From Candidatus Poribacteria bacterium (GTDB lineage Bacteria; Poribacteria; WGA-4E; WGA-3G), in contig OZ244821.1 of NCBI GenBank assembly GCA_965220325.1, forward strand, positions 3,037,924 to 3,101,923: a stretch of DNA of 64,000 nucleotides, written 5' to 3'. The translations under genes were made by a program, and so were the position numbers. The notes beneath the pieces are model-generated. The model made no database searches. It had not been told where the DNA came from and saw nothing but the letters and a program-made list of their open reading frames with translations. Position 1 is the first letter of the stretch, and each line of letters opens with the position of its first letter. This document shows positions 2,409 to 51,871 of this stretch, piece after piece.

Positions 2409-5213
2409 TTAACGTTCCAAACGAAGCACACCACGATGCTCAGTGCCAACGTAAAAGGCATCTCTATCAACAACGAGAGACGTTATGGCACTTGGAATTT
2501 CAGGCACAATTTGTTCCCAAGTCCTTGTTTCCTTTGCTAAGTGATAGATGCCGTCGTCATTCGCGCCATAAACAGTGTCCTCTGTTGTTGCTAACGCCTT
2601 AATGATGGTGCTTTCTCCCGCGTTATCGGTGATTGCATTCCAAACAACGCCATCTTTTGAACTGAAAACGCCTTTGTCGGTTGCGACCTGAACCGTTGCG
2701 TCAGCAAAGACAATTTGATTGAAGCGTTCAACAGACAACGACAGATGTGGTGTAATGTCGTTCCAACTATCCCCACCATCAAGCGATTGGAAGAGCTGTC
2801 CGTCCCGTTTACCGACATAGACGGTCTCTCCTGAAACCGCAATTTTAAAACGTTGTGCCATGTTTTCACGTGTGAGTTCACAAGTCTCTTCAACGCCTGT
2901 ATCCGACCATCTTACGTCACCCGGATTCCATCGGAAGAGTTTATAGTTGTACTCCATGTAATACGTTTCGCCACTGATGGCGAAGCTGCCGTATAAACCC
3001 TCCAACATCAATGCGTAAGTGAGTTGACCATCGCCTTGTTCTCGACCCAACAATTTTAGAAAGCATTCTGCACCAAATCTCGGATTCTCGCGTATTGTCT
3101 GGGTTGATAAAGACTCAGAATTAACGTCTGGATCATCTGTAGAGCGGGTAAAGGTCATTTGGCCCTCTTGTCTCGGTAGCCGATAAGAATCAAAGGGGAA
3201 TGTCACTCCCTTGAACACCGTCCACATGAGACTTCCTGAATCTCGCGGAGGTGGTGTCTTTCCCTCTTCAAAAATATAACCCTCAACAGGCTCTAAACAA
3301 TTTTTATCTGGTACGAGATGATAATAAGCCGTCTCACAATTACGTCGAATTCCTTTTGCATACAGAACACCGTCGGCTTCGGAAATCTGTACAATTAGCG
3401 GCGTGTCTTCCCTATCTTTGAGTTTCGCATTGAACTTTGGTATTTCAAGCGTATACCTTGGTCGTAGGATGTCAACAGCAGTCCACGAGCTGCCTGCGTC
3501 TGTTGATTTGACGACACCCCCCGCAACCGTCGCGTACAAAGCCTTAGCTGCTTCTGAATTTGGACGCGTCTCTTCTAAACTGATTAAGTTATCCACGTGG
3601 CACTCAAACCTTGTATTGAATCGGTGCCAGGTTTCACCGCCGTCCCTTGAGCGATGGATGCCAGTGATGCCCCCTGTATAAAAGGTGTTTTCGTCTAAAG
3701 CGACAGCAGCGTTCACACTAAAAATCATGGGTGTAATGCCGGAGGATTCTGTGGAACGCCAAGTGTCTCCACAGTCTGTTGAGCGAGCCACAACGCCTTC
3801 CTCTCCACCTATCAGTAAGACGGTTTTTCCAGAGGCGACCAGTTTAATCGGCGGCAACGTTTTCATTAGAAGATTCCGGGCATCCGTGGGCGTTACATCT
3901 GTCCAAGAGTCGCCGCCATCGGTTGATCGGAAGACCCACCACGAATCCTTACGCATATCACACAAATTGTGGTAATTTTCACTTGGCGTTCCGTCCCCTT
4001 CAAATATATTTACTTCTACGGCGACATAGATAGTGTCTTCAGATACCACCAAAGAACGCACGACCACAGTATTGTCCACCGGCAACTGTAGGTGTTCCCA
4101 CGTTCCCGCGTTAAGACGGTAGATTCCGAGAGAGGTTCCGGCAAATAGCGTATCTCCGCTCAATTGTAGTGTATAAATTCCCGATTTCTGTGTGAAGCGG
4201 CTGTCTAAACCGTCATTCATGTTTTGCCATGAATTTCCTGCGTCATCAGATCGGAAAATACCTTTATTAAGGGTAACGTAAAAAGCATCTTCGGTAATCA
4301 GCAATTCCCTCACGTGTCCGTTTGGACAAGGACCGATAGCATTCCAAGTTTTGCCGTCATCGGTTGATGCGAACAACGTATCGGATGGAATTATATAAAG
4401 CGTGCCATCGTGTTCAGCAATAGGGATATCGCCTGCGGTCCCTTGACGCAAAAAATCGGTGTTGACAAGTTGCCATTCATTTTCACGCGCAGGCAATTTG
4501 TAAATGTTCTCATAACCCATCACTGCGTAGAGTGACCCATCCGAAGTTTTCGTTAGTGTCCCGACTGGTGCCGCCACGCCGGGTTCATTCATCTGAATCC
4601 ATTTCATAACATCCTCCATGATATCATCTGATACTTGGGAACTGCCCAAAGCTTCGCGAACGACAGGGGTCTCTTTTTGCAATCGTTTCCGGGCGCGGTG
4701 GAGTCGGCTCTTGATCGTGTTCGGCGACATCTCCAGAAAATCACCGATTTCTTCGCAACTCATCTCACTGAGATAGTGAAGTGCTACGACTGTCCGTTCG
4801 CGCTCCGTTAGTTTTTGCAGGAGGTATTCAACGATCTCGCGTTGCTTATCTGTTGCCGAGTTTTCGGTCTGTTCTGTCAGATATTGGGTGTAGAACAGTG
4901 CCTCTATCTCTGCTGTATCCATCGCCTCCAAAGATTGCATCGGGATTCTTTTCTCCGCAAGCCATGCGAGGGAACAGCGGGTAGCAATCATATAAAGCCA
5001 CCCTGAAAACCGGTTTGGGTCTCTCAGCGTTCCGAGTTTTTGGTAGGCTTTAAGGAAAGCGTCCTGCGTAATTTCTTCAGCGATTTGGTAATCTCTTACC
5101 CGGCGCCATAGGAATGCGTGTATCTGCTTCTCGTATTTTCTCACGAGTGCGGTGAAGGCACTTTCATCGCCTGCTAAGATACGTTCAACCCATTTCGCGT
5201 CGTCGTTTTTCAT
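2409..5213 (-). CDS. ECF (sigma-70 family) sigma factor fused to a C-terminal BNR/Asp-box beta-propeller domain
   Basis: 934 aa. The N-terminal 190 aa carry sigma70 region 2 (DAFLKAYQKLGTLRDPNRFSGWLYMIA) and region 4 (ERERTVVALHYLSEMSCEEIGDFLEMSPNTIKSRLHRARKRL). The remainder carries at least 8 S/T-x-D-x-G-x-T/S-W Asp-box motifs (STDDGKTW, SDDAGNSW, STDGGDSW, STDCGDTW, SRDGGETW, STDAGSSW, SLDGGDSW). No TM segment is apparent. The RBS GGAGGA precedes the ATG. Confidence 0.8.
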   Translation of the reverse strand: MKNDDAKWVERILAGDESAFTALVRKYEKQIHAFLWRRVRDYQIAEEITQDAFLKAYQKLGTLRDPNRFSGWLYMIATRCSLAWLAEKRIPMQSLEAMDTAEIEALFYTQYLTEQTENSATDKQREIVEYLLQKLTERERTVVALHYLSEMSCEEIGDFLEMSPNTIKSRLHRARKRLQKETPVVREALGSSQVSDDIMEDVMKWIQMNEPGVAAPVGTLTKTSDGSLYAVMGYENIYKLPARENEWQLVNTDFLRQGTAGDIPIAEHDGTLYIIPSDTLFASTDDGKTWNAIGPCPNGHVRELLITEDAFYVTLNKGIFRSDDAGNSWQNMNDGLDSRFTQKSGIYTLQLSGDTLFAGTSLGIYRLNAGTWEHLQLPVDNTVVVRSLVVSEDTIYVAVEVNIFEGDGTPSENYHNLCDMRKDSWWVFRSTDGGDSWTDVTPTDARNLLMKTLPPIKLVASGKTVLLIGGEEGVVARSTDCGDTWRSTESSGITPMIFSVNAAVALDENTFYTGGITGIHRSRDGGETWHRFNTRFECHVDNLISLEETRPNSEAAKALYATVAGGVVKSTDAGSSWTAVDILRPRYTLEIPKFNAKLKDREDTPLIVQISEADGVLYAKGIRRNCETAYYHLVPDKNCLEPVEGYIFEEGKTPPPRDSGSLMWTVFKGVTFPFDSYRLPRQEGQMTFTRSTDDPDVNSESLSTQTIRENPRFGAECFLKLLGREQGDGQLTYALMLEGLYGSFAISGETYYMEYNYKLFRWNPGDVRWSDTGVEETCELTRENMAQRFKIAVSGETVYVGKRDGQLFQSLDGGDSWNDITPHLSLSVERFNQIVFADATVQVATDKGVFSSKDGVVWNAITDNAGESTIIKALATTEDTVYGANDDGIYHLAKETRTWEQIVPEIPSAITSLVVDRDAFYVGTEHRGVLRLER

Positions 5214-5675
5214 GCGGATCCTCCAATCAACAATATTGACTTGTGATATGTGACAGGTATTATAGGGTGGTCGGTTGCAAATTCGTAATTTTGCGTCTAA
5301 ATACTCGATATTTGCGCAATTTGCGTCCGTCCTGATTAAATTATTTGCTTTTTTTCTAAAAATATCTTATAATATCAGTCAGATACAGTCTTTAATAATT
5401 TAATTATTGAAATTAAAAATTAAATTGACCGATTGTAACCCATTGGCGTGCCCGTTTGAAAAAGCGTCGCACAGTCAGTTTTTTCAACCCCAAAACCGAA
5501 TGTCTGAGAATAAAAATGCCAAGTAGATGCCTCAATACTAATATTACCAGATTGACTTTCCCCGCGCCCCGACTTGACAGTGTGTGTGGTGAGAGTGTGC
5601 ACTGCTGCTCAGGATATTCGTTGCTTCTGTGTATTATTAACTCAGAGTTAACTGTGTCATCTGCACGGTTAACAG

Positions 5676-5687
5676 CCCCCCCCCCCC
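5676..5687. repeat. Homopolymeric C12 tract in the divergent intergenic region, about 195 bp upstream of the giant adhesin gene
   Basis: 12 consecutive C residues counted in the sequence. Confidence 0.9.
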
Positions 5688-5747
5688 GCTTAACAATTAA
5701 TAAGTATTGTATTTTACAAAATAGTACAGCCTTCAAGGATGTCCTCT

Positions 5748-5800
5748 CTTTAGTCATGCCCGCGCGCGTTTCGTCTTGCACGGAACGTTTCGTCGCGGGC
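5748..5800 (+). promoter_or_regulatory. GC-rich hairpin (GCCCGCG...CGCGGGC, with an internal CGTTTCGTC direct repeat) followed by TGTTTTTATT. It is a terminator- or attenuator-like element in the leader of the giant gene.
   Basis: The inverted repeat and T-run were read from the sequence. It lies about 80 bp upstream of the TTG start at 5881. Confidence 0.35.
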
Positions 5801-5880
5801 TGTTTTTATTGCATTCGGCTTTTCTGAATGCGTCTTATCGCTACCACTTTCTATTGAATACCGATAAAGGAGTTTAGACC

Positions 5881-8800
5881 TTGCTATTGACAAACAAAAA
5901 ATGTATCGTATCAATTTTCCTAACCACTTTTATAGTTTTTTTAACACATATATCCGGTTACGCAGATATAACCCCTGTCCAGGATCGCACACCACAGATC
6001 CGGGATGCGATTGTTGCCGCAGTGCCAGGTGTTAACAGTGCCAACGATGTCACCGCAGCACACCTCGCAGCCATTGCAACCCTGGAGGCTTCCAATAAGT
6101 CAATCAGTGCTTTGAAAGCTGGAGATTTCGATGGCCTCACCGCGCTGACAACGCTCGATCTGTCTCGCAATACCATCAGCGATATATCTCTGCTTGGGAG
6201 CTTGACTGCACTGACGGCACTCGAACTGTCTCAGAATGCCATCACTGATATATCTGTTCTTAAGAAATTGACGAAACTCAGATGGCTCTTTCTATCTCAT
6301 AATGCCATCAGCGATATATCTCCGCTTAAGAACTTGACTGCACTGAAACATCTCTGGCTCGGTGGCAATGCCATCAAAGATATATCTGCGCTTGAGAAAT
6401 TGACGAAATTGAAAAAACTCTGGTTGTCTCGCAATGCTATCAGTGATATATCTGTGCTTGAGAAATTGACACCACTGACAGCACTCTGGCTGGATGGTAA
6501 TGCTATCAGCGATGTATCTGCGCTTGAAGGTCTAATCTCGTTAGTGAGTTTAAATCTCAGTGGCAATCCGATTTCGGATTACGGTCCGCTGCGTAGACTC
6601 AAAACCGCCAATCCGGATATAACCATTGATATTGATATTGATGAGAATGATAATAGCGCGCCTGTATTCACCGCTGGCAGTAGCACGACGCGGTCTGTTG
6701 CGGAGAACACGGCTTCCGGCACAAACATCGGCAGTGCGGTATCCGCGACAGATACCGATAATGATACCTTAACCTATACGCTGGGGGGTACGGATGCGGC
6801 TTCGTTTCGTATTGTTTCGACCTCGGGACAACTCCGAACCAATGCTGCACTGGATTATGAAACGAAATCGTCCTACTCCGTGACTGTCTCCGTTTCTGAT
6901 AGTAATGGTGGCAGCGATAGCATTCCTGTCACGATCAGTGTGACGAACGTCAACGAAGCACCTAACTTCGCCAGCAGCACCGCGACGCGTTCGATAGCAG
7001 AGAACACGGCATCTGGTACAAATATCGGGACTGCTATTACTGCGACAGATGTGGATACCGGCGATACACCAACCTATACACTGGGTGGCACGGATGCGAG
7101 TTCGTTTAGCATCGTCAGCACATCCGGTCAACTCCGAACCAACGCTGCATTGAATTATGAAACGAAATCGTCCTATTCCGTGACGGTCACTGCCAGGGAT
7201 GCGGGTAACCTCTCGGATACGATCAGTGTCACAATCAGCATCACAGATGTCAACGAGGCACCCAACTTCGCAAGCAGCACAGCGACGCGTTCGATAGCAG
7301 AGAACACGGCATCGGGACAAAACATCGGAGCTGCTGTGGCAGCGACAGATGTTGATGGCGACACCCTCTCCTATACGCTCGGTGGCACGGATGCGAGTTC
7401 GTTCAGTATCGTCAGCACATCCGGTCAACTCCGAACGAGTGCGGCTTTGGACCGTGAAACAAAAGCCTCCTACTCCGTGACAGTCACTGCCTCCGATGGG
7501 AGTCTATCGGATACGACCACCGTCACGATCAGTGTGACCAACGTCAACGAAGCACCTAACTTCGCAAGCAGCACAGCAACACGGTCCATAGCAGAAAACA
7601 CCGCCTCCGGTCAAAACATCGGCACCGCTCTCACTGCGACAGACCCAGATGGCGATACACTCTCCTATACGCTGGGTGGCACGGATGCGAGTTCGTTTAG
7701 CATTGTGTCCAATTCCGGTCAACTCCGAACGAGTGCGGCTTTGGACCGTGAAACAAAAGCCTCCTATTCCGTGACAGTCACTGCCTCCGATGGGAGTCTG
7801 TCGGATACGACCACTGTCACGATCAATGTGACGAACGTCAACGAAGCACCTGTATTCACAGAAGGTAGCACAGCGACGCGTTCGATAGCGGAGAACACGA
7901 CTTCCGGCACAAACATCGGAGCTGCTGTGGCAGCGACAGATGTCGATGGTGATACCCTCTCCTATACACTCGGTGGCACGGATGCGAGTTCGTTTAGCAT
8001 CGTCAGCACGTCTGGTCAACTCCGAACCAGTGCGGCTTTGGACCGTGAAACAAAAGCCTCCTACTCTGTGACAGTCACTGCCTCCGATGGGAGTCTGTCG
8101 GATACGACCACTGTCACGATCAATGTGACGAACGTCAACGAGGCACCCACTTTCGCAACTACCACAGCAACGCGCTCGGTCGCAGAGAACACGGCAGCCA
8201 ATCAAAACATCGGCGCAGCTTTCACCGCAACGGATGTCGATAGTGGGACTACGCTCACCTATTCGATCCCTACAACCGGGGATGCCGCAGCCTTCAGCAT
8301 CGTCAGCAATACAGGGCAACTGAAAACAAAGAATACCCTGAACTATGAAGTTAAAAACGCCTATACGGTTGTTGTGACGGCTTCCGATGGAAGTTTGACC
8401 GATACGATCACCGTCACGATCAGTGTCACAAACGTCAATGAGACACCGACGTTTGCTACCGGAACAACCATCAGTAGTATTTCTGCCACCAAAGGAACGG
8501 CAATCACCTCCGTGACCTTGCCAGCAGCAACGGACCCTGACGCGAACACTACTATCACATACACGGTGACACCGACACTCCCCGCCGGGTTGACATTTAC
8601 GCCTTCAACGCGTATCCTCTCAGGCACACCTACGGCTGTGTCGGCTTCAGCGACTTATACCTATACGGCGAGTGATAGCAACCTTTCAGACACTTTGACG
8701 TTCACAATTCAAGTGAACGCGCCTGCTAACAACGCACCGACGTTCACGGATGGCACCAGCACGACGCGCTCGGTCGCAGAGAACACCGCTTCAGGGCAAA

Positions 8801-11800
8801 ACATCGGCAGTGCCGTCGGCGCAACCGATACGGATAACGACACGCTCAGCTATACCCTCGGTGGCACCGATGCCGCATCTTTCAGTATCGTCAGCACGAC
8901 AGGACAACTCCAAACCAACACTGCCCTAAATTACGAAAGCAAGTCGTCTTATTCTGTGTCAGTGTCTGTCTCTGATAACAACGGCGGCAGCGATAGTATC
9001 GCTGTCACGATCAATGTGACGAACGTCAATGAGGCACCAAGTTTCGCAAGCACCACTGCGACACGTTCGATAGCAGAGAACACCGCAGCCAACACAAATA
9101 TCGGCGCGGCTGTTGCTGCGACAGATGTCGATGGCAACACCCTCTCCTATACACTGGGTGGCACGGACGCAAGCTCATTTAGCATCGTCAGCACGTCTGG
9201 TCAACTCCGAACCAGTGCAGCCCTGGACCGTGAAACAAAAGCCTCCTATTCCGTGACGGTCACTGCCTCCGATGGCAGCCTGTCGGATACGACCACCGTC
9301 ACAATCAATGTGACGAACGTCAACGAAGCACCTAACTTCGCGAGCAGCACCGCAACACGCTCCATAGCAGAGAACACCGCCTCCGGTCAAAACATCGGCA
9401 CTGCCGTTGCGGCGACAGACCCAGATGGCAACACCCTCTCCTATACACTGGGTGGCACGGATGCGAGTTCATTTAGCATCGTCAGCACGTCTGGTCAACT
9501 CCGAACCAGTGCTGCTTTGGACCGTGAAACAAAAGCCTCCTATTCTGTGACAGTCACTGCCTCCGATGGGAGTCTATCGGATACGATCACCGTCACGATC
9601 AATGTGACGAACGTCAACGAGGCACCTAACTTCGCAAGCACCACAGCAACACGCTCTATAGCGGAGAACACGGTTTCCGGTCGAAACATCGGGACTGCCG
9701 TCGCCGCAACGGATGTTGACCATACTTCACTTACCTATACGCTGGGTGGCACGGATGCGAGTTCGTTTAGCATCGTCAGCACGTCCGGTCAACTCCGAAC
9801 CAGTGCAGCCCTGGACCGTGAAACAAAAGCCTCCTATTCTGTGACAGTCACTGCCAGGGATGCGGGTAACCTCTCAGATACGATCACCGTCACGATCAAT
9901 GTGACGAACGTCAACGAGGCACCAAGTTTCGCAAGCACCACAGCAACACGCTCCATAGCGGAGAACACGGTTTCCGGTCGAAACATCGGGACTGCCGTCG
10001 CCGCAACGGATGTTGACCATACTTCACTCACCTATACTTTGGGTGGTACGGATGCGAGTTCGTTTAGCATCGTCAGCACGTCTGGTCAACTGCGAACCAG
10101 TGCGGCTTTGGACCGTGAAACAAAAGCCTCCTACTCTGTGACAGTCACTGCCAGGGATGCGGGTAACCTCTCGGATACGATCACTGTCACGATCAATGTG
10201 ACGAACGTCAACGAGGCACCAAGTTTCGCAAGCACCACTGCGACGCGCTCTATAGCAGAGAACACGGTTTCTGGTCGAAACATCGGGACTGCCGTCGCCG
10301 CAACGGATGTTGACCATACTTCACTCACCTATAGTCTTGGTGGCACGGATGCGAGTTCATTTAGCATCGTCAGCACGTCTGGTCAACTGCGAACCAGTGC
10401 TGCTTTGGACCGTGAAACAAAAGCCTCCTACTCTGTGACAGTCACTGCCAGGGATGCGGGTAACCTCTCGGATACGATCACCGTCACAATCAATGTGACG
10501 AACGTCAACGAGGCACCGAGTTTCGCAAGCACCACAGCAACACGCTCCATAGCGGAGAACACGGTTTCCGGTCGAAACATCGGCACTGCTGTATCTGCGA
10601 CAGATGTTGATGGCAACACGCTCACCTATAGTCTCGGTGGCACGGATGCGAGTTCGTTCAGTATCGTCAGCACATCGGGTCAACTCCGAACGAGTGCAGC
10701 TTTGGACCGTGAAACAAAAGCCTCATATTCTGTGACAGTCACTGCCAGGGATGCGGGTAACCTCTCGGATACGATCACCGTCACGATCAATGTGACAAAC
10801 GTCAATGAGGCACCAAGTTTCGCAACTACCACCGCGACGCGCTCGGTCGCAGAGAACACGGCAACCAATCAAAACATCGGCACAGCTCTCACCGCAACGG
10901 ATGTCGATAGTGGCACCACGCTCACCTATTCGATAGCGACAACCGGGGATGCCGCAGCCTTCAGCATCGTCAGCAATACAGGGCAACTGAAAACAAAGAA
11001 TACCCTGAACTATGAAGTTAAAAACGCCTATACGGTCGTTGTGACGGCTTCCGATGGAAGTTTGACCGATACGATCACCGTCACAATCAGTGTGACAAAC
11101 GTCAATGAGGCACCCACTTTCGCAACTACCACCGCGACGCGCTCGGTCGCAGAGAACACGGCAACCAATCAAAACATTGGCACGGCTCTCACCGCAACGG
11201 ATGTTGATAGTGGCACCACGCTCACCTATTCGATCCCGACAACCGGGGATGCCGCAGCCTTCAGCATCGTCAGCAATACAGGGCAACTGAAAACAAAGAA
11301 TGCCTTGAACCATGAAACAAAAGCCTCCTATACGGTCATTGTGACGGCTTCCGACGGAACTTTGTCAGATACCATCACCGTCACGATCAGTGTCACAAAC
11401 GTCAACGAAGCACCGAGTTTCAGCACTTCGGGGAGGGTCACGCTCTCCGTCGCAGAGAACACGGCAGCCAACACCAACATCGGCACCCCCTTCCAGGCAA
11501 CAGACCCCGATAGTGGGGATACAGTGACCTATTCGCTGCAGCGAGCCGATAAGACCTCGTTCCGTATTGACGCAAATACGGGGCAGCTGAAAACCCACGC
11601 GGCACTTGACTATGAAACGAAAAATTCTTACAGCAATCTCGCCGTCCGCGCGGCTGATAGCGGGGGTCTCGTCAGTAGCGTCCTTGTCACTGTCAACGTT
11701 ACAAATGTCAATGATAATTCCCCCGTGTTCACGGAGGGTGCCAGCACGACGCGGTCTATCGCAGAGAACACGGATTTCGGCACAAACATCGGAACTCCGG

Positions 11801-14778
11801 TCGCTGCGACGGATGCCGATAATGATACCCTCAGCTATACACTGGGCGGCACGAATGCATCCTCATTTTACATTATTGGCACATCCGGGCAGCTGAGAAC
11901 AGGCTCCGTCGCCTTGGATTATGAAACGAAATCGTCCTATTCGGTCACGGTCAACGTTTCTGATGGCAACGGTGGGAGTGATAGTATCGCTGTCACCATC
12001 AACGTTACAGATGTTGATGAATCGCCTGCAAACAGCGCACCGACCTTCACGGATGGCACCAGTACCACACGCACTGTTGCGGAGAACACCGCTTTAGGCA
12101 CCTACGTCGGAAGTGCGGTTGCTGCGACCGTTGCGAATAACGCCACACTCACCTATACGCTGAGTGGCGCGGATGCGGCCTCGTTTAGCATTGGCAGTGC
12201 CTCCGGGCAGATCCAAACAAATGCTGCCATGGATTATGAAGTCAAGAATTCCTACACCGTCACGGTTGACGTTTCTGGTAGCAATGGCGGGAGTGACAGT
12301 ATCACCGTCACCATCAATGTTACAGATGAAGCCGAATCCCCGATAGCACCGCCGCTCAGTGACCGCACGCCACAAGTGCGCGCTGCGATTGTTGCTGCAG
12401 CACCAGGCGTTAGCAATGTTGCTGATGTGACCGTAGCACACCTCGCAGCGATTGCCTCCCTGAATTTGTCGAATAGGTCAATCCGTTCTCTAAAAACTGG
12501 GGATTTCAATGGACTCACCGGAATGGGAGCACTCGATCTGCATCTCAACTCGATCAGTGATATATCTGCCCTGAGTGGATTGACCCAACTGAGACATCTT
12601 GATCTGGGCTTCAATTCGATCAGTGATATATCTGCCCTGAGTGGCATGACCTCAATGGTCAATCTCAGTCTGCTTAACAATTCGATCAGTGATATATCTG
12701 CCCTGAGTGGCATGACTTTGATGACAAGTCTCGGTCTGTCTAACAATTCGATCAGTGATATATCTGCCCTGAGTGGCATGACCTTGATAGACACTCTCAA
12801 TCTAACGAACAATAACGTTACGGATGTATCTGCCCTGAGTGGCATGACCTCGCTATTCATCTTATCTGTCGCAGGGAATCCGATTTCGGATTATGGTCCC
12901 CTCCGGACCCTCAAGGCAGCAAATCCGAATGCCCGCCTTGATATTAGCCTTAATAACAACCCACCCGTCTTCACTGAAGGCACCAGTGCCACGCGGTCTA
13001 TTGCAGAGAATACGGCATCTGGCACAAACATAGGCACTGCGGTTGCTGCGACCGATGCGGATAACCATACCCTTAGATATAGTTTGGGTGGCACGGATGC
13101 GGCTTCGTTCAGCATTGTCAGCACATCAGGACAGCTCCGCACAAATGCTGCCCTGGATTATGAAACGAAGTCCTCTTATGCTGTAACAATCACCGTTTCT
13201 GATGGAAATAACGGGGGTGATAGTATCAGCGTCACCATCAATGTTACAGATGTAGTTGAGCATGACCCCGTGTTCACGGATGGCGACACCACGACGCGGT
13301 CTGTTGCGGAGAACTCCGGTAGAGGCACCAACGTCGGAACTCCGGTGGCTGCGACCGATGCGAATACCGGCGACACACTCACCTATACGCTCGGTGGCAC
13401 CGATGCCGCATCGTTTAGCATTGTCTCCACATCCGGGCAGCTCCGAACCAATGCTACTCTGGATTATGAAACCAAGAGCTCCTACACTGTCACGGTTGAC
13501 GTTTCTGACGGTACTGGCGGGAGTGACAGTATCACCGTCACCATCAATGTTACAGATGTCGAGGAATCCACGATAACACCTGTAAAGGATCGCACGACGC
13601 AGGTACGGGATGCGATTGTTGCTGCGGTGTCAGGCGTTAGCAATGCTGACGATGTGACCGAAGCACACCTCGCAGCGATTACAGAATTGAATCTCGGATC
13701 AAAGTCAATCACTACGCTGAAGGCTGGCGATTTCAGTGGACTCACCGGACTCGAAACGCTCTATCTGGACAGCGAGTCGCCCAGTGATACACATAAAAAT
13801 TCGATCAGTGATATATCACCCCTTGAAGGCTTGACTACCCTGACAAGGCTCAATCTGCTTTACAATTCGGTCAGCGATATATCTGCGCTGAGTGGCATGA
13901 CTTCAATGAGCCAGCTTAATCTGGATAACAATTCGGTCAGTGATATATCTGCCTTGAGTGGCATGACTTCAATGACCATTCTCAGTATGAAGAACAATAA
14001 CGTTACGGATGTATCTCCCCTGAGTGGCATGACCACGATGTTCATCTTATCTGTCGCAGGGAATCCGATTTCAGATTACGCTACCCTCCGGACACTCCAG
14101 GCACATTCGCTTTGGGTACTTGATATTAGTCTTAATAACAACCCACCGACGTTCACCGATGGTGCCACCACCACGCGCTCGGTCGCCGAGAACACGGCAG
14201 CGGGACAAAACATCGGCAGTGCAGTCTCTGCGACGGATGCGAATAACCATACGCTCACCTATAGTCTCGGTGGCACGGATGCGGATTCGTTTAGCATCGT
14301 TTCCACCTCCGGGCAGCTCCAAACCAAAGCAGCACTCGACTATGAAACGAAGAACAGCTATACGGTAACAGTGACTGCTTATGACGGCAATAACGGTGGG
14401 GACAGAATCACCGTCACGATCAATGTCACCGACGTAGCAGCTGCTGCACCGGTTGTGCTAACACCGCCAGCACCCGTGCTGCCGAACACAACCGAGTTGC
14501 TGACAAACTTCCCGAACCCGTTCAACCCGGAGACGTGGATACCGTATCAGCTCGCCAAACCGGCAGATGTGACGCTAACCATCTACGATATCCGCGGTCG
14601 TATCGTGCGGACGTTGCGATTAGGGCACCAACCTGCAGGTTTCTACCAGAATCGGAGCAAGGCAGCGCATTGGGATGGACGAAATCATCTCGGTGAAAAG
14701 GTCGCCACAGGCGTGTATTTCTACACCCTCAAAGCCGGCGATTACATGGCAACCCGCAAGCTCTTGATACGGAAATAG
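5881..14778 (+). CDS. Giant secreted surface protein (2965 aa): signal peptide, 3 leucine-rich-repeat modules, about 25 cadherin-like repeats, C-terminal T9SS-type (Por_Secre_tail-like) sorting domain
   Basis: TTG start 8 nt after AAGGAG. The N-terminus is hydrophobic. LxxLxLxxNxISDIS 22-residue LRRs occur at aa 70-230 and again near nt 12360-12960 and 13560-14130. Each LRR module opens with DRTPQIRDAIVAAxPGV. There are about 100-aa repeats ending in NVTNVNEAP with TDVDGD calcium-binding-like motifs. The C-terminus GVYFYTLKAGDYMATRKLLIRK matches the T9SS C-terminal domain pattern. Confidence 0.9.
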   Translation: MLLTNKKCIVSIFLTTFIVFLTHISGYADITPVQDRTPQIRDAIVAAVPGVNSANDVTAAHLAAIATLEASNKSISALKAGDFDGLTALTTLDLSRNTISDISLLGSLTALTALELSQNAITDISVLKKLTKLRWLFLSHNAISDISPLKNLTALKHLWLGGNAIKDISALEKLTKLKKLWLSRNAISDISVLEKLTPLTALWLDGNAISDVSALEGLISLVSLNLSGNPISDYGPLRRLKTANPDITIDIDIDENDNSAPVFTAGSSTTRSVAENTASGTNIGSAVSATDTDNDTLTYTLGGTDAASFRIVSTSGQLRTNAALDYETKSSYSVTVSVSDSNGGSDSIPVTISVTNVNEAPNFASSTATRSIAENTASGTNIGTAITATDVDTGDTPTYTLGGTDASSFSIVSTSGQLRTNAALNYETKSSYSVTVTARDAGNLSDTISVTISITDVNEAPNFASSTATRSIAENTASGQNIGAAVAATDVDGDTLSYTLGGTDASSFSIVSTSGQLRTSAALDRETKASYSVTVTASDGSLSDTTTVTISVTNVNEAPNFASSTATRSIAENTASGQNIGTALTATDPDGDTLSYTLGGTDASSFSIVSNSGQLRTSAALDRETKASYSVTVTASDGSLSDTTTVTINVTNVNEAPVFTEGSTATRSIAENTTSGTNIGAAVAATDVDGDTLSYTLGGTDASSFSIVSTSGQLRTSAALDRETKASYSVTVTASDGSLSDTTTVTINVTNVNEAPTFATTTATRSVAENTAANQNIGAAFTATDVDSGTTLTYSIPTTGDAAAFSIVSNTGQLKTKNTLNYEVKNAYTVVVTASDGSLTDTITVTISVTNVNETPTFATGTTISSISATKGTAITSVTLPAATDPDANTTITYTVTPTLPAGLTFTPSTRILSGTPTAVSASATYTYTASDSNLSDTLTFTIQVNAPANNAPTFTDGTSTTRSVAENTASGQNIGSAVGATDTDNDTLSYTLGGTDAASFSIVSTTGQLQTNTALNYESKSSYSVSVSVSDNNGGSDSIAVTINVTNVNEAPSFASTTATRSIAENTAANTNIGAAVAATDVDGNTLSYTLGGTDASSFSIVSTSGQLRTSAALDRETKASYSVTVTASDGSLSDTTTVTINVTNVNEAPNFASSTATRSIAENTASGQNIGTAVAATDPDGNTLSYTLGGTDASSFSIVSTSGQLRTSAALDRETKASYSVTVTASDGSLSDTITVTINVTNVNEAPNFASTTATRSIAENTVSGRNIGTAVAATDVDHTSLTYTLGGTDASSFSIVSTSGQLRTSAALDRETKASYSVTVTARDAGNLSDTITVTINVTNVNEAPSFASTTATRSIAENTVSGRNIGTAVAATDVDHTSLTYTLGGTDASSFSIVSTSGQLRTSAALDRETKASYSVTVTARDAGNLSDTITVTINVTNVNEAPSFASTTATRSIAENTVSGRNIGTAVAATDVDHTSLTYSLGGTDASSFSIVSTSGQLRTSAALDRETKASYSVTVTARDAGNLSDTITVTINVTNVNEAPSFASTTATRSIAENTVSGRNIGTAVSATDVDGNTLTYSLGGTDASSFSIVSTSGQLRTSAALDRETKASYSVTVTARDAGNLSDTITVTINVTNVNEAPSFATTTATRSVAENTATNQNIGTALTATDVDSGTTLTYSIATTGDAAAFSIVSNTGQLKTKNTLNYEVKNAYTVVVTASDGSLTDTITVTISVTNVNEAPTFATTTATRSVAENTATNQNIGTALTATDVDSGTTLTYSIPTTGDAAAFSIVSNTGQLKTKNALNHETKASYTVIVTASDGTLSDTITVTISVTNVNEAPSFSTSGRVTLSVAENTAANTNIGTPFQATDPDSGDTVTYSLQRADKTSFRIDANTGQLKTHAALDYETKNSYSNLAVRAADSGGLVSSVLVTVNVTNVNDNSPVFTEGASTTRSIAENTDFGTNIGTPVAATDADNDTLSYTLGGTNASSFYIIGTSGQLRTGSVALDYETKSSYSVTVNVSDGNGGSDSIAVTINVTDVDESPANSAPTFTDGTSTTRTVAENTALGTYVGSAVAATVANNATLTYTLSGADAASFSIGSASGQIQTNAAMDYEVKNSYTVTVDVSGSNGGSDSITVTINVTDEAESPIAPPLSDRTPQVRAAIVAAAPGVSNVADVTVAHLAAIASLNLSNRSIRSLKTGDFNGLTGMGALDLHLNSISDISALSGLTQLRHLDLGFNSISDISALSGMTSMVNLSLLNNSISDISALSGMTLMTSLGLSNNSISDISALSGMTLIDTLNLTNNNVTDVSALSGMTSLFILSVAGNPISDYGPLRTLKAANPNARLDISLNNNPPVFTEGTSATRSIAENTASGTNIGTAVAATDADNHTLRYSLGGTDAASFSIVSTSGQLRTNAALDYETKSSYAVTITVSDGNNGGDSISVTINVTDVVEHDPVFTDGDTTTRSVAENSGRGTNVGTPVAATDANTGDTLTYTLGGTDAASFSIVSTSGQLRTNATLDYETKSSYTVTVDVSDGTGGSDSITVTINVTDVEESTITPVKDRTTQVRDAIVAAVSGVSNADDVTEAHLAAITELNLGSKSITTLKAGDFSGLTGLETLYLDSESPSDTHKNSISDISPLEGLTTLTRLNLLYNSVSDISALSGMTSMSQLNLDNNSVSDISALSGMTSMTILSMKNNNVTDVSPLSGMTTMFILSVAGNPISDYATLRTLQAHSLWVLDISLNNNPPTFTDGATTTRSVAENTAAGQNIGSAVSATDANNHTLTYSLGGTDADSFSIVSTSGQLQTKAALDYETKNSYTVTVTAYDGNNGGDRITVTINVTDVAAAAPVVLTPPAPVLPNTTELLTNFPNPFNPETWIPYQLAKPADVTLTIYDIRGRIVRTLRLGHQPAGFYQNRSKAAHWDGRNHLGEKVATGVYFYTLKAGDYMATRKLLIRK

Positions 14779-15375: not shown

Positions 15376-15404
15376 TTGACAAAATGGCGATGGTGTGTGA
15401 TAAT
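15376..15404 (+). promoter_or_regulatory. Sigma70-type promoter with extended -10: TTGACA-17 bp-(TGt)GATAAT
   Basis: -35 TTGACA at 15376-15381, 17-nt spacer, TG at 15396-15397, GATAAT at 15399-15404. It lies about 65 nt upstream of the ATG at 15472. Confidence 0.6.
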
Positions 15405-15471
15405 GCTATTGCTGAAAAGGATTTATATGCTGTGTGTACCTGAGAATCGGACATATAACAGGGGGGAACAG

Positions 15472-17214
15472 ATGGCTAACGAACTGATGACGAACGAAGA
15501 GAATTACGCTTTTGATGTGGCGGGCTACCTACACATTCCGGGCGTTCTCAGTCAGGAAGAGGTAGCAGCACTCAACGAGGCATTAGACGCATTTGGTGAG
15601 AGTGAAACGCTGTTAGGCGGCGACAGTCCACACCGCGAATTGTTCCGCGATTTACTGGTACATCCGACATTGGTGTGGTATTTGAACCAGATCATCGGAC
15701 ACGGCTTCCGACTCGATCAGGCACCCCGATTGTTGGGACAGCGAGAAGGTGAAACCGGTCTAACACTCACTGGCGGCGATGAACCGAGAAACCCGTCCTT
15801 AGCATACCGCATACAAAAGGATAGGAGAAGCTGCCAAGGCGTGAAAGCGGTCTGGGCGTTGGACGACATCACAGAAGACGATGGTGGACTCGTCGTTGTT
15901 CAGGCGAGCCATAAGAGTAATGTCGAGACACCGAACGACTTGGCAACCGGCGTTGACGATATGGACGTAGTCGTGCATCCGGAACTCAAGGCAGGTGATC
16001 TATTCTTGGTTGCGGTACCTACGCTCCAAGGCGTTCGTCCGTGGAAAGACGAGCCGAAAAGGTTGTTGAGCTACTGGTACGCCGCGCGTGCAGCAATCCA
16101 ATCGAATCCAGTTGGACCTTACTCGGAAACCGCATCTCTGCCGGGATGGGCAGATGAAGCGACACCTGCGCAAAGGGCGGTCCTGTATGTCCCCGGTTAT
16201 AAGGGTTCAAGTCCACCACCGGTGATAGATACAGACGGCGAAGAGACATGGGTGGAAGAAGATTCGTCTGTTGTTCATCCGTCAATTTATATGCGCGACC
16301 CGAATTCAGGCATCGATGAGAAAGAGTTTTACTTTTGGGATCTAAATGGGTATCTCGTGGTGCGCGGTGTGATGGATGAGCAGTGGTTGGCAGAGGCAAA
16401 TGAAGCGGTGGATAAATTCCAAGATCGCATCGTTGTCGGCAGTGAACTGGCGGGTGGATCGGTCAGCCAAGCCGGTACAGGTCGTCCCCTCCTATCGGGG
16501 CTGTTAAGCCTACCCGACCCTTATAACGAACCCTTCCGACGCATGATTGCGCACCCTACTGTGGTGCAGCGACTCAACTGGATGGGCGGTAGCGGCTATC
16601 GCACGGGTGGCGCGACTGTATTCTGTGCGGTTGAAGGCACGTCAGGGCACTCACTCCACGACGGCAATGAACCGATGAGTCCATCACGGGGTTATGATTT
16701 CAAAAATGGACGCAGCTATGCTGAGACCGTCACGATTACCTGGCAATTGCGCGATGTCGAACCTGGGCTCGGCGGTTTCGCCTGTGTACCCGGTTCCCAC
16801 AAGACGCAGTACTCGATGCCACGCGGCATTCGGACGTGTGATGATACGATGGGGTTAGTGGTACAACCGGTTATGAAAGCCGGGGACGTGCTTTTCTTTA
16901 TGGACGGCGGTTGCACACACGGTGCCTTGGCGTGGAAGAATCCGATCCCCAGACGTGGGGTCCTGATTAAGTATCAGTCGAAAAATGTCAATTGGGGCGG
17001 CGGTGTGATTGATCCTCAGGACCGGTGGGGCGATATGGTCGAAGATATGACCGAGGAACAATTCGCTGTCATGCGTGGACCCGAACGCGACGGTCGCCAC
17101 CGGACTGTACCGAGACTGGTTGTGGAAGACGGAGAGGTGTTCGTTTCCTACGATCCTGAAGGCGATAGTTATGCCTCAAAGCATCGCCGCAAACCGGGTG
17201 AAAAACGAGGGTAA
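15472..17214 (+). CDS. Tandem-domain phytanoyl-CoA dioxygenase (PhyH) family protein (two PhyH-like halves)
   Basis: ATG at 15472 is preceded by GGGGGGAACAG. The N-terminal half starts MANELMTNEENYAFDVAGYLHIPGVLSQEEV. The second half restarts with EKEFYFWDLNGYLVVRGVMDEQW and has a conserved His (CVPGSHK). The ORF track's longer start at 15376 overlaps the promoter and was not used. Confidence 0.65.
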   Translation: MANELMTNEENYAFDVAGYLHIPGVLSQEEVAALNEALDAFGESETLLGGDSPHRELFRDLLVHPTLVWYLNQIIGHGFRLDQAPRLLGQREGETGLTLTGGDEPRNPSLAYRIQKDRRSCQGVKAVWALDDITEDDGGLVVVQASHKSNVETPNDLATGVDDMDVVVHPELKAGDLFLVAVPTLQGVRPWKDEPKRLLSYWYAARAAIQSNPVGPYSETASLPGWADEATPAQRAVLYVPGYKGSSPPPVIDTDGEETWVEEDSSVVHPSIYMRDPNSGIDEKEFYFWDLNGYLVVRGVMDEQWLAEANEAVDKFQDRIVVGSELAGGSVSQAGTGRPLLSGLLSLPDPYNEPFRRMIAHPTVVQRLNWMGGSGYRTGGATVFCAVEGTSGHSLHDGNEPMSPSRGYDFKNGRSYAETVTITWQLRDVEPGLGGFACVPGSHKTQYSMPRGIRTCDDTMGLVVQPVMKAGDVLFFMDGGCTHGALAWKNPIPRRGVLIKYQSKNVNWGGGVIDPQDRWGDMVEDMTEEQFAVMRGPERDGRHRTVPRLVVEDGEVFVSYDPEGDSYASKHRRKPGEKRG

Positions 17215-23606: not shown

Positions 23607-24014
23607 ATGTTGAGCAGAAATGTAAATGGAAAAATCAGCGTGTTGATTCTATCAATGCTATTATTTTTGACCGCTTGCGGTGGTGATGATATCGATGTCG
23701 ATTATCTTGGGGATTTCTATACGCCTACTTCGCACGTGGATGTTTACTTTTCGGAGGATGATGTAACCGAAGGCTATCTGGTGATGGGACACGCGACAGC
23801 AGACGGCGGTGACACAGAGGCGTTACAAGAAACGTTAATAGAGAAGGCACGCGACAGCGGTGCTGATGGAATCATATTTGAAGGCTTCGATCGGGTAGAG
23901 ACCGGAGAACAAAGCATCGTCAGTGACATAGGTGACACAAGTATCGTTAGCACAGACACCACAAGCGTATTACAGGTTAAAGCGATTTTTATCAAGTACA
24001 ATAAGAATCTATAA
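23607..24014 (+). CDS. Small lipoprotein, function unknown
   Basis: ATG after AGGAG. Signal peptide with lipobox LTAC (MLSRNVNGKISVLILSMLLFLTACGGDD). The ORF track's earlier start overlaps the upstream gene. Confidence 0.5.
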   Translation: MLSRNVNGKISVLILSMLLFLTACGGDDIDVDYLGDFYTPTSHVDVYFSEDDVTEGYLVMGHATADGGDTEALQETLIEKARDSGADGIIFEGFDRVETGEQSIVSDIGDTSIVSTDTTSVLQVKAIFIKYNKNL

Positions 24015-25034
24015 GGCGTTTCGGACGACAGGTGGCGTGTTTTTCGTGTTATTTTCGCTGTTAGAAGGTTCGGTGAGATACGGGGCGCGCCAGTCAATGT
24101 TTGAAATATAGCGTTTCCAGAATAGGATAACACAGGGGATGCTGATGAGGAGTGTCAGCAGTCCCCACCACCAAGATTCTTGGAATGCTGTAATAGTTTT
24201 GGGTGAAGTAAGGATGTCAAAGCGCGTTTCAAGTAGCGCGAGGAGCCACGCGATGAGATTGTTGACAAAATGGATGCTAATAGGAATGAAAAGCGACTTG
24301 GTTCGGATATAGAAAACAGCCAGCACAAAACCGACACAGAACATCCCTATGATATTAATAATGTGTGGGAAGGCAAAAGCTACCGCTGACACAATAACAG
24401 CCGGAATTACACTCCATTTCACAGACCATCGTGTCAACAAAATGCCGCGTACATAGAATTCCTCAAATATCGGAGCGATTATCACAATCATGAGGAAGTT
24501 CAACAAATTTGCCAGAACATATTTATCGCCGTTTGTCCAAACCAGAGTCGGATAGAGATCAATGAGCCACGATTTGACAAGTGCGGGAAAAATAAAAGAT
24601 AACGGAAGAAATAGAAGGTAGAGGGATGCAATGGAGAGGATAAGGAGTGGGACTGCCCATAGGCTATATCGCACTAACTTATCCCACCCTGGAAACGGCC
24701 CCAACAATCTACTATAAGATAAACCTGAACGAGACAGCATTCTGAATGTAAATAAAAAAAAGAAAACGTACAGCAGGCACCCTGATAGAGCCTCTGGGAG
24801 TGGTGCGGGCTTGAGAGCCTCTGGGAGTGGTGCGGGTTTGCTTATAAACCATGCTGGTAGAAAATTTCTGAGAATGATGAGACTAACTATAGTCGCGATA
24901 TACGCCAAGATAGCGTAAACCACTAACATTCTCGCTCGAATTTTTTCAAAAGGGGATAGATTAGCCGTCATACTGATATTTACAACCTCCAATTTTCTGT
25001 TTGTGTGGTCAGTCAACAAAATCTTCACTTTCAC
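24009..25034 (-). CDS. CPBP family intramembrane metalloprotease (CAAX protease / Abi domain) with an N-terminal membrane extension
   Basis: EEFYVRGILLTRW, FAFPHI and HFVNNL motifs (EExxxR, FxxxH, HxxxN). It contains a direct 27-bp coding repeat (KPAPLPEAL x2) at about 24781-24840. Confidence 0.65.
   Translation of the reverse strand: MKVKILLTDHTNRKLEVVNISMTANLSPFEKIRARMLVVYAILAYIATIVSLIILRNFLPAWFISKPAPLPEALKPAPLPEALSGCLLYVFFFLFTFRMLSRSGLSYSRLLGPFPGWDKLVRYSLWAVPLLILSIASLYLLFLPLSFIFPALVKSWLIDLYPTLVWTNGDKYVLANLLNFLMIVIIAPIFEEFYVRGILLTRWSVKWSVIPAVIVSAVAFAFPHIINIIGMFCVGFVLAVFYIRTKSLFIPISIHFVNNLIAWLLALLETRFDILTSPKTITAFQESWWWGLLTLLISIPCVILFWKRYISNIDWRAPYLTEPSNSENNTKNTPPVVRNAL

Positions 25035-51698: not shown

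Positions 51699-51774
<76 letters not shown>

Positions 51775-51797: not shown

Positions 51798-51871
<74 letters not shown>

Follow-up and report, generated by a model that had tools for sequence, protein, structure and literature searches.

A predicted giant adhesin from a sponge-symbiont Candidatus Poribacteria bacterium combines internalin-type LRR modules, a cadherin array and a conserved C-terminal tag

We analyzed a 64-kb stretch of Candidatus Poribacteria DNA (hereafter the window), in which an open reading frame at 5881..14778, stop codon included, encodes a protein of 2965 aa; this gene and all features given below lie on the + strand. Translation starts at a TTG codon, with the ribosome-binding site AAGGAG 8 nt before it (5867..5872), and a public protein of equal length, P0241, encoded on a 6.11-Mb contig, is 100% identical to the product. 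As judged from the translation, residues 1-28 (5881..5964) form a predicted Sec-type signal peptide, with a KK pair, a hydrophobic core and a GYA/D cleavage site. Behind it stand three LRR modules, 21 cadherin domains and one He_PIG domain, interspersed with each other, and finally a C-terminal β-sandwich of 92 aa. The modules succeed one another as an LRR module, 18 cadherins (six, the He_PIG domain and 12 more), a second LRR module, two cadherins, a third LRR module and one last cadherin, which is followed by an Ala/Pro-rich linker, AAAAPVVLTPPAPVLPNTTEL (14437..14499). Catalytic domains, dockerins and cohesins are all absent from the 2965-aa protein according to Pfam. This modular plan of three LRR modules and a cadherin array had been proposed in a first-pass annotation of the DNA, and Pfam, NCBIfam and repeat analysis confirm it.

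LRR module 1 (aa 30-257; 5968..6651), delimited by profile matches and AF2, consists of a helical N-cap, seven 22-residue LRRs and a GNPISDY C-cap. Modules 2 (aa 2151-2358; 12331..12954) and 3 (aa 2560-2752; 13558..14136), located by a regular expression, open with the same N-cap, DRT(P/T)Q(I/V)R(D/A)AIVAA..GV....DVT.AHLAAI, such that the common opening segment ending in AHLAAI, already noticed at first pass, is present in all three. The 22-residue LRR expression matches 7, 6 and 5 times in modules 1, 2 and 3, respectively, the final match in each being the C-cap. The AF2 model of module 1 (pLDDT 96.1) superposes on InlC2, InlH, InlA and InlB of Listeria with TM scores of 0.85-0.88 and an rmsd of 1.5-1.7 Å, the InlC2 match (TM 0.88) including the helical N-cap. 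The LRRs of this protein, described at first pass as eukaryote-like, are therefore of the 22-residue bacterial internalin type and not eukaryote-type. The helical N-cap and the repeat LxxLxxLxLxxNxIsDIsxLxx are shared with the Listeria internalins, whereas the poribacterial protein has neither the Ig-like inter-repeat domain nor an LPXTG or GW anchor, and, in a diderm bacterium, carries its LRRs as three modules set among cadherins. NCBIfam internalin_A reaches 219.8 bits over the LRR region (cut-off 1600) and internalin_H 174.4 bits (cut-off 1050), both models matching the cap and LRR region alone; with respect to a full-length class 1 internalin match (cap, LRR, Ig-like inter-repeat and wall anchor), the protein stays far below the NCBIfam family cut-offs.

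The cadherin domains occupy 6652..8445 (domains 1-6, from Pfam, repeat period and motifs), 8728..12330 (domains 7-18, including the near-identical tandem CAD10-13, from Pfam and pairwise identities), 12955..13557 (domains 19-20) and 14137..14436 (domain 21), the last two blocks being assigned by repeat period and pairwise comparison. PF00028 matches 21 stretches (E=1e-258, 837 bits) with a period of ~99 aa (98-106 aa), and the He_PIG domain, a dystroglycan-type, cadherin-like Ig fold, lies at aa 862-946 (8464..8718; 41.6 bits, cut-off 24). Among the calcium-binding motifs, xEN is found in 21/21 domains, DxD in 18/21 (it is lost in CAD18, CAD20 and CAD21) and LDxE in 16, with LNxE in 5, while (N/D)V(N/D)E(A/S)P linkers of the NVNEAP type occur in most of the 21 domains. 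The closest solved relatives of a cadherin pair are animal CELSR1, protocadherins and cadherin-23 (E=3.6e-54), and the calcium-binding motifs align with those of CELSR1; the array is predicted to bind Ca2+. The cadherin-like nature attributed to these repeats at first pass thus holds, in domain profile, nearest structures and motifs alike. Tandem PF00028 domains of ~99-100 aa with xEN, DxD, LDRE and DxNDxxP-like motifs are common to animal cadherins, the cadherin proteins of Saccharophagus degradans and the protein studied here; the poribacterial protein differs in having no transmembrane or cytoplasmic region, NVNEAP in its linkers in place of DxNDNAP, and domains that have been amplified within the gene, up to 99% identity.

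This amplification substantiates the internal duplication that the first-pass annotation had pointed out. At the protein level, CAD1 and CAD7 are 83% identical, CAD3-5 and CAD8-9 89-95%, and CAD6 and CAD14 95%, while CAD10-12 are mutually 98-99% identical and CAD13 follows at 94-96%. In the DNA, the tandem repeat has a 297-bp period and 13.4 copies. Given that CAD10-13 are merely 88-95% identical at the DNA level, the array is not an assembly collapse; the differences among CAD10-12 are mostly silent.

The protein has a wide kinship. A total of 3805 proteins are related to it at E<=1e-20, with an identity of 51-65% across 61-95% of the query for the top matches, and LRR and cadherin domains are combined in more than 100 relatives with lengths of 2000-5200 aa, several per genome. 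The grammar of P0243, P0247, P0250 and P0256 is N-cap LRR, cadherins, LRR, cadherin(s) and C-terminal domain (CTD), and 54/60 parsed giant relatives end in the CTD. Giant relatives that carry a taxon name are from Poribacteria (P0272), as are all named relatives of the CTD. Likewise, the 79 best loci in the genome scan come from Poribacteria metagenome-assembled genomes (MAGs), except for a few labeled "uncultured bacterium" and one Rhodothermaceae contig, and the flanking genes are syntenic with the Poribacteria MAG contigs L079 and L066, with a DNA identity of up to 85%. The host-associated context that had been suggested is in agreement with this assignment to a phylum of sponge symbionts, in which cadherins are enriched (PMC8163846). 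The adhesin is another member of a large protein family previously described in Poribacteria. The proteins of Kamke et al. 2014 (PMC3909097) share with it the phylum, LRR pfam12799, cadherin domains, signal peptides and a TIGR04183-like C-terminal domain, together with the puzzle of absent Por genes. They come from fragmentary single-cell genomes, however, and neither this gene and its full architecture of three LRR modules, 21 cadherins and He_PIG, nor a tail so extremely conserved and of fixed length, was reported there.

The tail, a 92-aa β-sandwich sorting domain at aa 2874-2965 (14500..14775; LTNFPNPFNPETWIPYQL...GVYFYTLKAGDYMATRKLLIRK), was delimited by profile scores, AF2 and family conservation. 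It had been described as a T9SS-type C-terminal tail, which is correct in part. The match to NCBIfam TIGR04183 is above the cut-off (28.6 bits vs 23), covers model positions 2-71 of 72 and ends within two residues of the stop, and stretches resembling IYDxxGRxV, GVYFY and KLLIRK can be seen by eye, whereas Pfam Por_Secre_tail (PF18962) scores 19 bits, below its cut-off of 27. CHU_C also stays below its cut-off (18.7 bits vs 27), and the sole Pfam model passed is FlgD_ig (PF13860), at 34.9 bits (cut-off 27). The AF2 model of the tail (pLDDT 91.4) is an Ig-like β-sandwich like that of solved CTDs. The T9SS-type character of the tail is no more than a resemblance; the best PDB matches are to FlgD, both by sequence (profile search E~1e-6, vs E=0.16 for a T9SS CTD) and by fold (Foldseek E 1.6e-4, 32% identity, above T9SS CTDs). 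The T9SS matches in Foldseek comprise the CTDs of NucA, RemA and RemZ in translocon complexes (8glk, 8gl6, 8gl8) and likewise those of PorU, PorZ, RgpB and mirolase, with a TMt of 0.62-0.72 for the set. The tail is therefore closest to the Ig domain of FlgD, and solved T9SS CTDs match it more weakly. The FlgD hook-cap protein (PDB 7eh9, 7bhq, 3osv) differs from the poribacterial one in having an N-terminal domain that is missing here, where the PF13860 match is confined to the Ig-like domain, and this domain serves in Poribacteria to tag the termini of secreted proteins, unrelated to each other and numbering in the hundreds; no flagellar gene lies near the ORF within the window. Other proteins (P0361-P0369) contain the core of the tail internally, as tandem arrays with 9-15 copies, and its fold recurs in secreted Gram-positive peptidases such as Vpr and C5a peptidase (Foldseek). 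Thus, the fold alone does not imply T9SS.

We surveyed the tag in 79 Poribacteria loci (1.34 Mb, 852 ORFs). The tail is carried by 131 ORFs, 126 of which have the motif PNPFN.ETW exactly 88 aa before the stop. It is borne by 35 unrelated cargo clusters, including proteins with WD40, LRR, cadherin, LDL-receptor B, Big_1, dockerin or cohesin domains, and 32/35 cargo representatives match FlgD_ig. The results show a conserved C-terminal tag on otherwise unrelated cargo, with the near-invariant pattern N(Y/F)PNPFNPETWIPY...WDGRN...GVYFYTL...RKxLIRK, a mean pairwise identity of 69% and 32/92 positions at least 95% conserved. Third-codon identity at the conserved residues is only 44%, which indicates selection on the protein rather than gene conversion; the tail is under unusually strong purifying selection. 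In addition, 5,775 cluster representatives match the tail at E<=1e-30, and the single-stretch matches among those listed reach the last residue; the best CTD match in the genome scan is 83% identical. Short relatives made up of the CTD only reflect which homologues are listed, namely proteins shorter than ~1.75 times the query length, or truncated gene calls starting inside domains. In Bacteroidota, CTDs are divergent among cargo, and the poribacterial tail is far more conserved among its cargo than they are among theirs. Such a high conservation, unlike that of Bacteroidota CTDs, could mean that the mature protein retains the domain, which would then serve in binding.

One possible, though doubtful, view is that the adhesin is a canonical T9SS type A substrate of a poribacterial, perhaps divergent, T9SS (SprA/Sov, PorV, PorU, GldKLMN) by which it would be exported, freed of its CTD and joined to a surface glycolipid. 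The TIGR04183 match, which runs nearly over the full model and almost to the stop and recurs at 30-39 bits in the relatives that matched among those scanned, is in favor of it, as are the translocon-bound CTDs and those of PorU, PorZ and RgpB with a like fold, the strictly C-terminal position of the tail and the name "T9SS type A sorting domain-containing protein" given by NCBI to relatives. Type A cargo such as RgpB, RemA, NucA, PorU and PorZ likewise combines an N-terminal Sec signal with a C-terminal β-sandwich of ~80-90 aa that passes TIGR04183; the poribacterial tail adds the invariant PNPFNPETWIPY motif and a FlgD-type WDGRN...GE loop. The scores for Por_Secre_tail and for the PDB profiles given above argue against such a substrate, and so does the machinery. 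We found no T9SS gene in the window, and no T9SS core component (SprA/Sov, PorV, PorU, PorZ, GldK/L/M/N) among the recurrent or tagged ORFs of the 1.34 Mb of Poribacteria loci. Poribacteria are a separate candidate phylum outside Bacteroidota, and T9SS is described as limited to Bacteroidetes in a passage of PMC11611037. Kamke et al. (2014; PMC3909097), who predicted a surface location for TIGR04183-tagged poribacterial eukaryote-like proteins, did not find the Por structural genes in six incomplete poribacterial single-cell genomes, and theirs was the only relevant report found in literature searches on Poribacteria with T9SS, Por secretion or dockerin. Given the absence of T9SS components from the window and the sampled loci, and of Por genes from those genomes, the T9SS route is unproven. 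Of the two conditions named at first pass for refuting the T9SS call, a missing TIGR04183 match does not apply to the tail, while for missing T9SS components in the genome the literature is negative.

An apparent PorU hit (NF033707) covers only the model's own CTD (999-1077 of 1095) and is not a sortase, and the tagged proteins sampled include no PorU-like sortase. We considered and rejected, as sorting enzymes of the myxosortase/MrtJ type, the two CPBP/CAAX proteases encoded at 24009-25905, since they match far below the cut-off and the tail has neither a transmembrane helix nor a Cys motif. All-against-all BLAST of the 852 ORFs of the 79 loci revealed no dedicated sorting gene beside tagged genes. 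The ten most recurrent neighbor families scanned are GFO/IDH/MocA, enolase, ABC transporter, Uma2, PhyH, WD40, DUF6785, sulfatase, periplasmic binding protein and one without Pfam assignment; none of them resembles sorting machinery, and apart from abundant metabolic families no recurrent neighbor stands out.

Alternatively, the C-terminal domain may stay on the protein as an Ig domain of FlgD type and bind a conserved component of the envelope or matrix, or itself, export occurring by another route such as T2SS or the protein being released, which we consider somewhat unlikely. FlgD_ig as the sole Pfam match of the tail above cut-off, its match to most cargo representatives, FlgD as the best PDB match, and the presence of the core in internal arrays and in Vpr and C5a peptidase are all consistent with such a domain, and strong purifying selection would fit a binding surface. 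However, a fixed C-terminal position over 35 unrelated cargo types is typical of sorting signals, the invariant N(Y/F)PNPFNPETWIPY motif and the basic last strand look like a signal for recognition or cleavage, and there is no known binding partner.

The neighborhood raises a different question, namely whether glycan foraging, and not host adhesion, is the role of the protein, with cadherins that bind carbohydrate and so keep sulfated or pectin-like polysaccharides close to the cell; we judge this to be unlikely. Near the gene, the window contains PhyH and sulfatase genes, as the first-pass annotation had stated, and pectate lyase, LamG lectin-like, BNR/sialidase-like and enolase-superfamily genes. 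Apart from PhyH, these genes speak for foraging, as does the fact that many proteins with the same tail bear dockerin or cohesin modules. A follow-up study on the cadherin domains of S. degradans reportedly found carbohydrate binding. That this polysaccharide degrader has cadherin domains (Fraiberg et al. 2010, as cited in passages of PMC7313196 and PMC8163846) points in the same direction. By contrast, the adhesin itself is devoid of catalytic domain, dockerin and cohesin, its gene forms no operon with the enzymes, being flanked by a 667-bp promoter region on one side and a ~600-bp gap on the other, and internalin-type LRRs are protein-binding modules. Finally, it is highly improbable that the giant ORF is a mis-assembled repeat array or a pseudogene, as its long tandem repeats and its origin in a metagenome-assembled genome might suggest, since the frame is uninterrupted over 8.9 kb, repeat copies differ by 5-12% in DNA while the CAD10-12 proteins are almost equal, and both grammar and tail are shared by dozens of intact relatives 2000-5200 aa in length. 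The gene product is a real 2965-residue protein of sponge-symbiont Candidatus Poribacteria, predicted to be a secreted adhesin.

We favor, with a probability of about 0.7, the view that this sponge-symbiont member of Candidatus Poribacteria displays the protein on its surface as a giant adhesin, sorted by its tail and composed of a Ca2+-stiffened stalk with LRR heads. According to this model, the N-terminal Sec signal peptide would bring the protein to the periplasm, and the C-terminal β-sandwich, FlgD-Ig-like and resembling a T9SS type A CTD, would act as the generic sorting or anchoring tag of the phylum, directing passage through the outer membrane or attachment there. The 21 cadherin domains, whose Ca2+ linker motifs are largely intact, may stiffen in the calcium of seawater into a stalk of ~100 nm, on which the three internalin-like LRR modules would be the ligand-binding heads, one at the distal N-terminal tip and two closer to the cell. 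The likely ligands would be proteins or glycans of the sponge mesohyl, of sponge cells or of neighboring bacteria. Points against this model are the absence of T9SS genes from the window and of a PorU-like sortase from the tagged proteins sampled, the lack of a conspicuous recurrent neighbor gene, the loss of DxD from CAD18, CAD20 and CAD21, and the conservation of the tail, higher than in Bacteroidota CTDs. The giant T1SS adhesins LapA, SiiE and MpIBP have very long Ca2+-stiffened stalks of Ig/cadherin-like domains bearing ligand-binding modules, and the functional logic of a stiff stalk with such modules is alike. They differ in having a C-terminal RTX/T1SS signal and no Sec signal, whereas the poribacterial protein has a predicted Sec signal and a β-sandwich CTD; we rejected a T1SS route for the latter protein on account of this Sec signal and of the absence of RTX repeats in Pfam searches of the 2965 aa.

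The gene bears on the display of the numerous eukaryote-like proteins of sponge symbionts towards their host, for which Kamke et al. 2014 noted the missing Por genes and Robbins et al. 2021 that classical secretion systems are encoded by few sponge-symbiont lineages. The gene is a complete example from a closed chromosome, in which the full grammar of a poribacterial adhesin is visible. Taken alone it adds a family member and no new principle, while the tag offers a concrete handle; with ~40 complete Poribacteria chromosomes now public, the presence of T9SS is directly answerable.

Upstream of the gene, a weak sigma-70-like site, TTAACA-N17-AACAAT (5669..5697), is a candidate phase-variable promoter, with a C12 homopolymer (5676-5687) in its spacer; the 1.34 Mb of Poribacteria loci contain only one other C or G run of at least 9. 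Between this site and the gene, ~70 nt before the start codon, lies a conserved GC-rich hairpin with a T-run (5758..5810), recognized by RNAalifold from two related loci where the element recurs (L035:1555-1720 and L070:18190-18345). The fold has 28 predicted pairs, 4 of them compensatory, and a z-score of -2.2, with no Rfam match in the upstream region; from its sequence the hairpin is terminator-like, a candidate leader attenuator or small-RNA end. On a tentative reading, which we regard as rather doubtful, the tail would mark a Poribacteria-wide export and display pathway distinct from canonical T9SS, and the adhesin would perhaps be phase-variable via the C12 tract and the leader hairpin. 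Two leads are worth following, a conserved tag lacking known machinery and a C12 tract in a promoter spacer. Secreted proteins that bear the near-invariant tag number in the thousands and are otherwise unrelated, and many of them have cohesin or dockerin modules.

The giant gene is an uninterrupted frame of 2965 codons (5881-14778, + strand) that starts with TTG and has an AAGGAG motif 8 nt upstream. A public protein from a 6,111,736-bp contig (P0241) is 100% identical to its product and equal in length, so that the start is agreed by independent gene calling. The N terminus (KK, a hydrophobic stretch, GYA|D) is a predicted Sec signal peptide, within which lies the sole Cys of a protein that is acidic (D+E 277 vs K+R 147) and abundant in Thr, Ser and Ala. 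A full-length search returned 3805 relatives at E<=1e-20, of which over 100 are 2000-5200 aa long and combine LRRs with cadherin domains, nearly all with FlgD_ig too, and such giants occur several per genome (e.g., five on one 6,075,137-bp contig). Motif parsing showed a module grammar common to the homologues P0243, P0247, P0250 and P0256, namely an N-capped LRR, cadherins, an LRR, cadherin(s) and the C-terminal tail, the latter being terminal in 54 of the 60 giant relatives parsed. Given these numerous relatives, their shared grammar and their common ending, the giant protein belongs, as judged by sequence, to a large poribacterial family.

The first-pass annotation had described a modular, internally duplicated protein with cadherin-like repeats, and on these points it was confirmed. 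Pfam finds Cadherin (PF00028) in 21 stretches (E=1e-258), along with one He_PIG domain (aa 862-946), and an [AV]EN[TS] motif recurs 21 times at a spacing of 98-106 residues. The calcium-binding motifs xEN and LDxE or LNxE are present in 21/21 domains and DxD in 18/21, with NVNEAP-type linkers in most. The domains are genuinely animal-like: the closest matches to a two-domain query were CELSR1 (E=3.6e-54), protocadherins and cadherin-23, in alignments that pair up the LDRE and DxD motifs. Numbered from the N terminus, CAD1 and CAD7 are 83% alike, CAD3-5 and CAD8-9 89-95%, and CAD6 and CAD14 95%, while Tandem Repeats Finder reports a 297-bp array of 13.4 copies. CAD10-12 share 98-99% protein identity with each other and 94-96% with CAD13, at a DNA identity among CAD10-13 of just 88-95%. 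That the copies diverge silently speaks against a collapsed assembly and in favour of selection acting at the protein level, and we rejected the possibility that the ORF is an artefact.

The protein had also been called eukaryote-like, with three LRR modules. Three modules are indeed present (aa 30-257, 2151-2358 and 2560-2752; Pfam LRR_4 and LRR_8), and all share a 35-residue opening cap, DRT(P/T)Q(I/V)R(D/A)AIVAA..GV....DVT.AHLAAI, followed by 22-residue LTxLxxLxLxxNxISDISxLxx repeats and a closing GNPISDY. However, the AlphaFold model of module 1 (pLDDT 96.1) superposes on Listeria internalins, best on InlC2 (TM 0.88 at 1.5 A), then InlH, InlA and InlB, and NCBIfam internalin models match the LRR part alone, far under their cut-offs. 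On the strength of this fold model, the LRRs are of the bacterial internalin type rather than eukaryote-type.

The protein ends in a 92-aa beta-sandwich (aa 2874-2965), which we searched for in one genome per species, with at least 591 confirmed matches. The best 79 loci, together 1.34 Mb, come from Poribacteria MAGs, save one Rhodothermaceae contig and a few loci that bear the label "uncultured bacterium"; those relatives of the tail that carry a name are without exception "Candidatus Poribacteria bacterium". The Rhodothermaceae contig (VXLY01000011.1, 5.3 kb, sponge bin) carries a typical Poribacteria tail at 65% identity; it probably stems from Poribacteria in the same sponge metagenome series and was wrongly binned. 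The 79 loci contain 131 tailed ORFs, with a PNPFN.ETW motif exactly 88 residues ahead of the stop in 126 of them. Their cargo falls into 35 unrelated clusters (FlgD_ig detected in 32 representatives), with LRR in 9, LDL-receptor B in 7, cadherin and Big_1 in 4 each, and WD40 in 3, including the largest (45 ORFs). The 127 tails compared average 69% identity, with 32 of the 92 positions conserved to 95% or more; where residues are conserved, identity at third codon positions is just 44%, indicating purifying selection on the protein rather than gene conversion. A 50%-identity library held 5,775 matching representatives at E<=1e-30, 136,284 at E<=1e-10 and 297,826 at E<=1e-3, and in the single-stretch matches listed the alignment reaches the last residue. 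With its fixed terminal position, unrelated cargo and conservation, the tail behaves as a dedicated terminal tag. Separately, P0361-P0369, P0390 and P0432 contain 8-15 tandem internal copies of an FlgD_ig-like core without the terminal motifs, so the fold serves as a repeat unit too. In 14 of the 35 cargo clusters the tail is directly preceded by a type I dockerin (Dockerin_1), and 4 clusters have cohesin, a hint that Poribacteria may build surface assemblies from cohesin-dockerin pairs; a literature search for such an assembly found no paper.

We consider it most likely that the giant protein is a surface adhesin. It would be exported by Sec to the periplasm, and a putative outer-membrane sorting or anchoring system would recognise the terminal beta-sandwich. 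The cadherin stalk would then be displayed, stiffened by calcium; as a cadherin domain measures ~4.5 nm, it would extend roughly 100 nm. Internalin-like LRR heads, one at the distal tip and two near the base, would act as adhesins in the sponge mesohyl. Alternatively, the tail may be a retained FlgD-type binding domain on a protein exported by another route: Pfam FlgD_ig matches it at 34.9 bits (cut-off 27), a profile built from 37 tails hits the Ig domains of FlgD hook caps at E~1e-6, and FlgD is the closest fold (E 1.6e-4, 32% identity) to its all-beta AlphaFold model (pLDDT 91.4). Further fold matches to this model are the CTDs of PorU, PorZ, RgpB and mirolase, and those of NucA, RemA and RemZ solved on the T9SS translocon (TMt up to 0.72). 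Export by the canonical T9SS route, implied by the T9SS-type label first given to the tail, gains from TIGR04183 (28.6 bits, cut-off 23), but Por_Secre_tail stays below its cut-off (19 vs 27 bits) and the 37-tail profile reaches the T9SS CTD 8glj_D at just E=0.16, in an alignment limited to the final 24 residues. No T9SS component was found within the 64-kb window, neighbours recurring beside tagged genes in the Poribacteria loci are no more than abundant metabolic families, and no PorU-like sortase was found among the tagged proteins sampled, where matches to the PorU model span just PorU's own CTD. Kamke et al. 2014 (PMC3909097) reported a TIGR04183-like domain on many eukaryote-like proteins of Poribacteria, and detected no Por structural genes in six incomplete single-cell genomes of the phylum. 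Sponge symbionts are enriched in cadherins and eukaryote-like repeats, with few lineages having classical secretion systems (Robbins et al. 2021, PMC8163846). The abstract of one review describes the T9SS as confined to Bacteroidetes (PMC11611037), and Poribacteria is a bacterial candidate phylum not within Bacteroidota (NCBI taxonomy). The T9SS reading is therefore a resemblance, not demonstrated membership, and the initial interpretation of the protein as a whole is partly supported. A last alternative, that the protein holds glycans, is suggested by neighbouring carbohydrate-active genes.

The giant gene is preceded by an AT-rich intergenic region of 667 bp, where a weak promoter-like site (TTAACA/AACAAT, 17-nt spacer, 5669-5697) encloses a C12 run (5676-5687). 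C/G runs of at least 9 are very rare in Poribacteria DNA: the one other in the 1.34 Mb of loci (L070:18210-18220) likewise lies ~200 nt ahead of a gene, whose product is a secreted FGE-sulfatase-like lipoprotein. The C12 tract may mediate slipped-strand phase variation. Downstream of it lies a GC hairpin with a T-run (GCCCGCGCG...CGCGGGCTGTTTTT, 5758-5810), with counterparts at L035:1555-1720 and L070:18190-18345. RNAalifold predicts 28 pairs across the three loci, 4 with compensatory changes, and the hairpin, which has no Rfam match, could be a leader attenuator or a small RNA. Expression may thus be phase-variable or attenuated, as suggested by three sequences and a weak consensus.

Apart from the giant gene, the window shows synteny with the Poribacteria contigs L079 (pectate lyase 85% identical, PhyH gene 84%) and L066 (tig-clpP-clpX and MFS region). 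Besides housekeeping genes (tig, clpX, lon), it encodes two PhyH proteins, a sulfatase, the pectate lyase, and LamG and BNR proteins; the proposed PhyH and sulfatase context is thus borne out, and fits the richness reported for the phylum (PMC3909097). The gene at 2409-5213 (-), which diverges from the giant gene, codes for a fusion of an ECF sigma factor (aa 1-190) with a ~750-aa BNR/Sortilin-like beta-propeller region, an unusual sigma-factor architecture in which a transmembrane segment between the two parts is not evident. The 612-aa product of 15376-17214 (+) has a PhyH dioxygenase domain in its C-terminal half alone (aa 321-528), with no family match for the ~300 N-terminal residues. Two tandem CPBP/CAAX (Rce1-like) intramembrane protease genes (24009-25905, -) match MrtJ and MrtS sorting-protease models weakly, far under cut-off, and a single ORF (43910-45346, +) is a fusion that carries an N6/N4 DNA methylase domain and, at its C terminus, an HNH endonuclease domain. 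Six tRNA genes cluster just upstream of tig (51699-52296, +), the last (52211-52296) being 100% identical to L066, and an ISKra4-family transposase (54269-55567, +; 233 bits, cut-off 205) is inserted between tig (52501-53832) and the clpP-clpX-lon genes.
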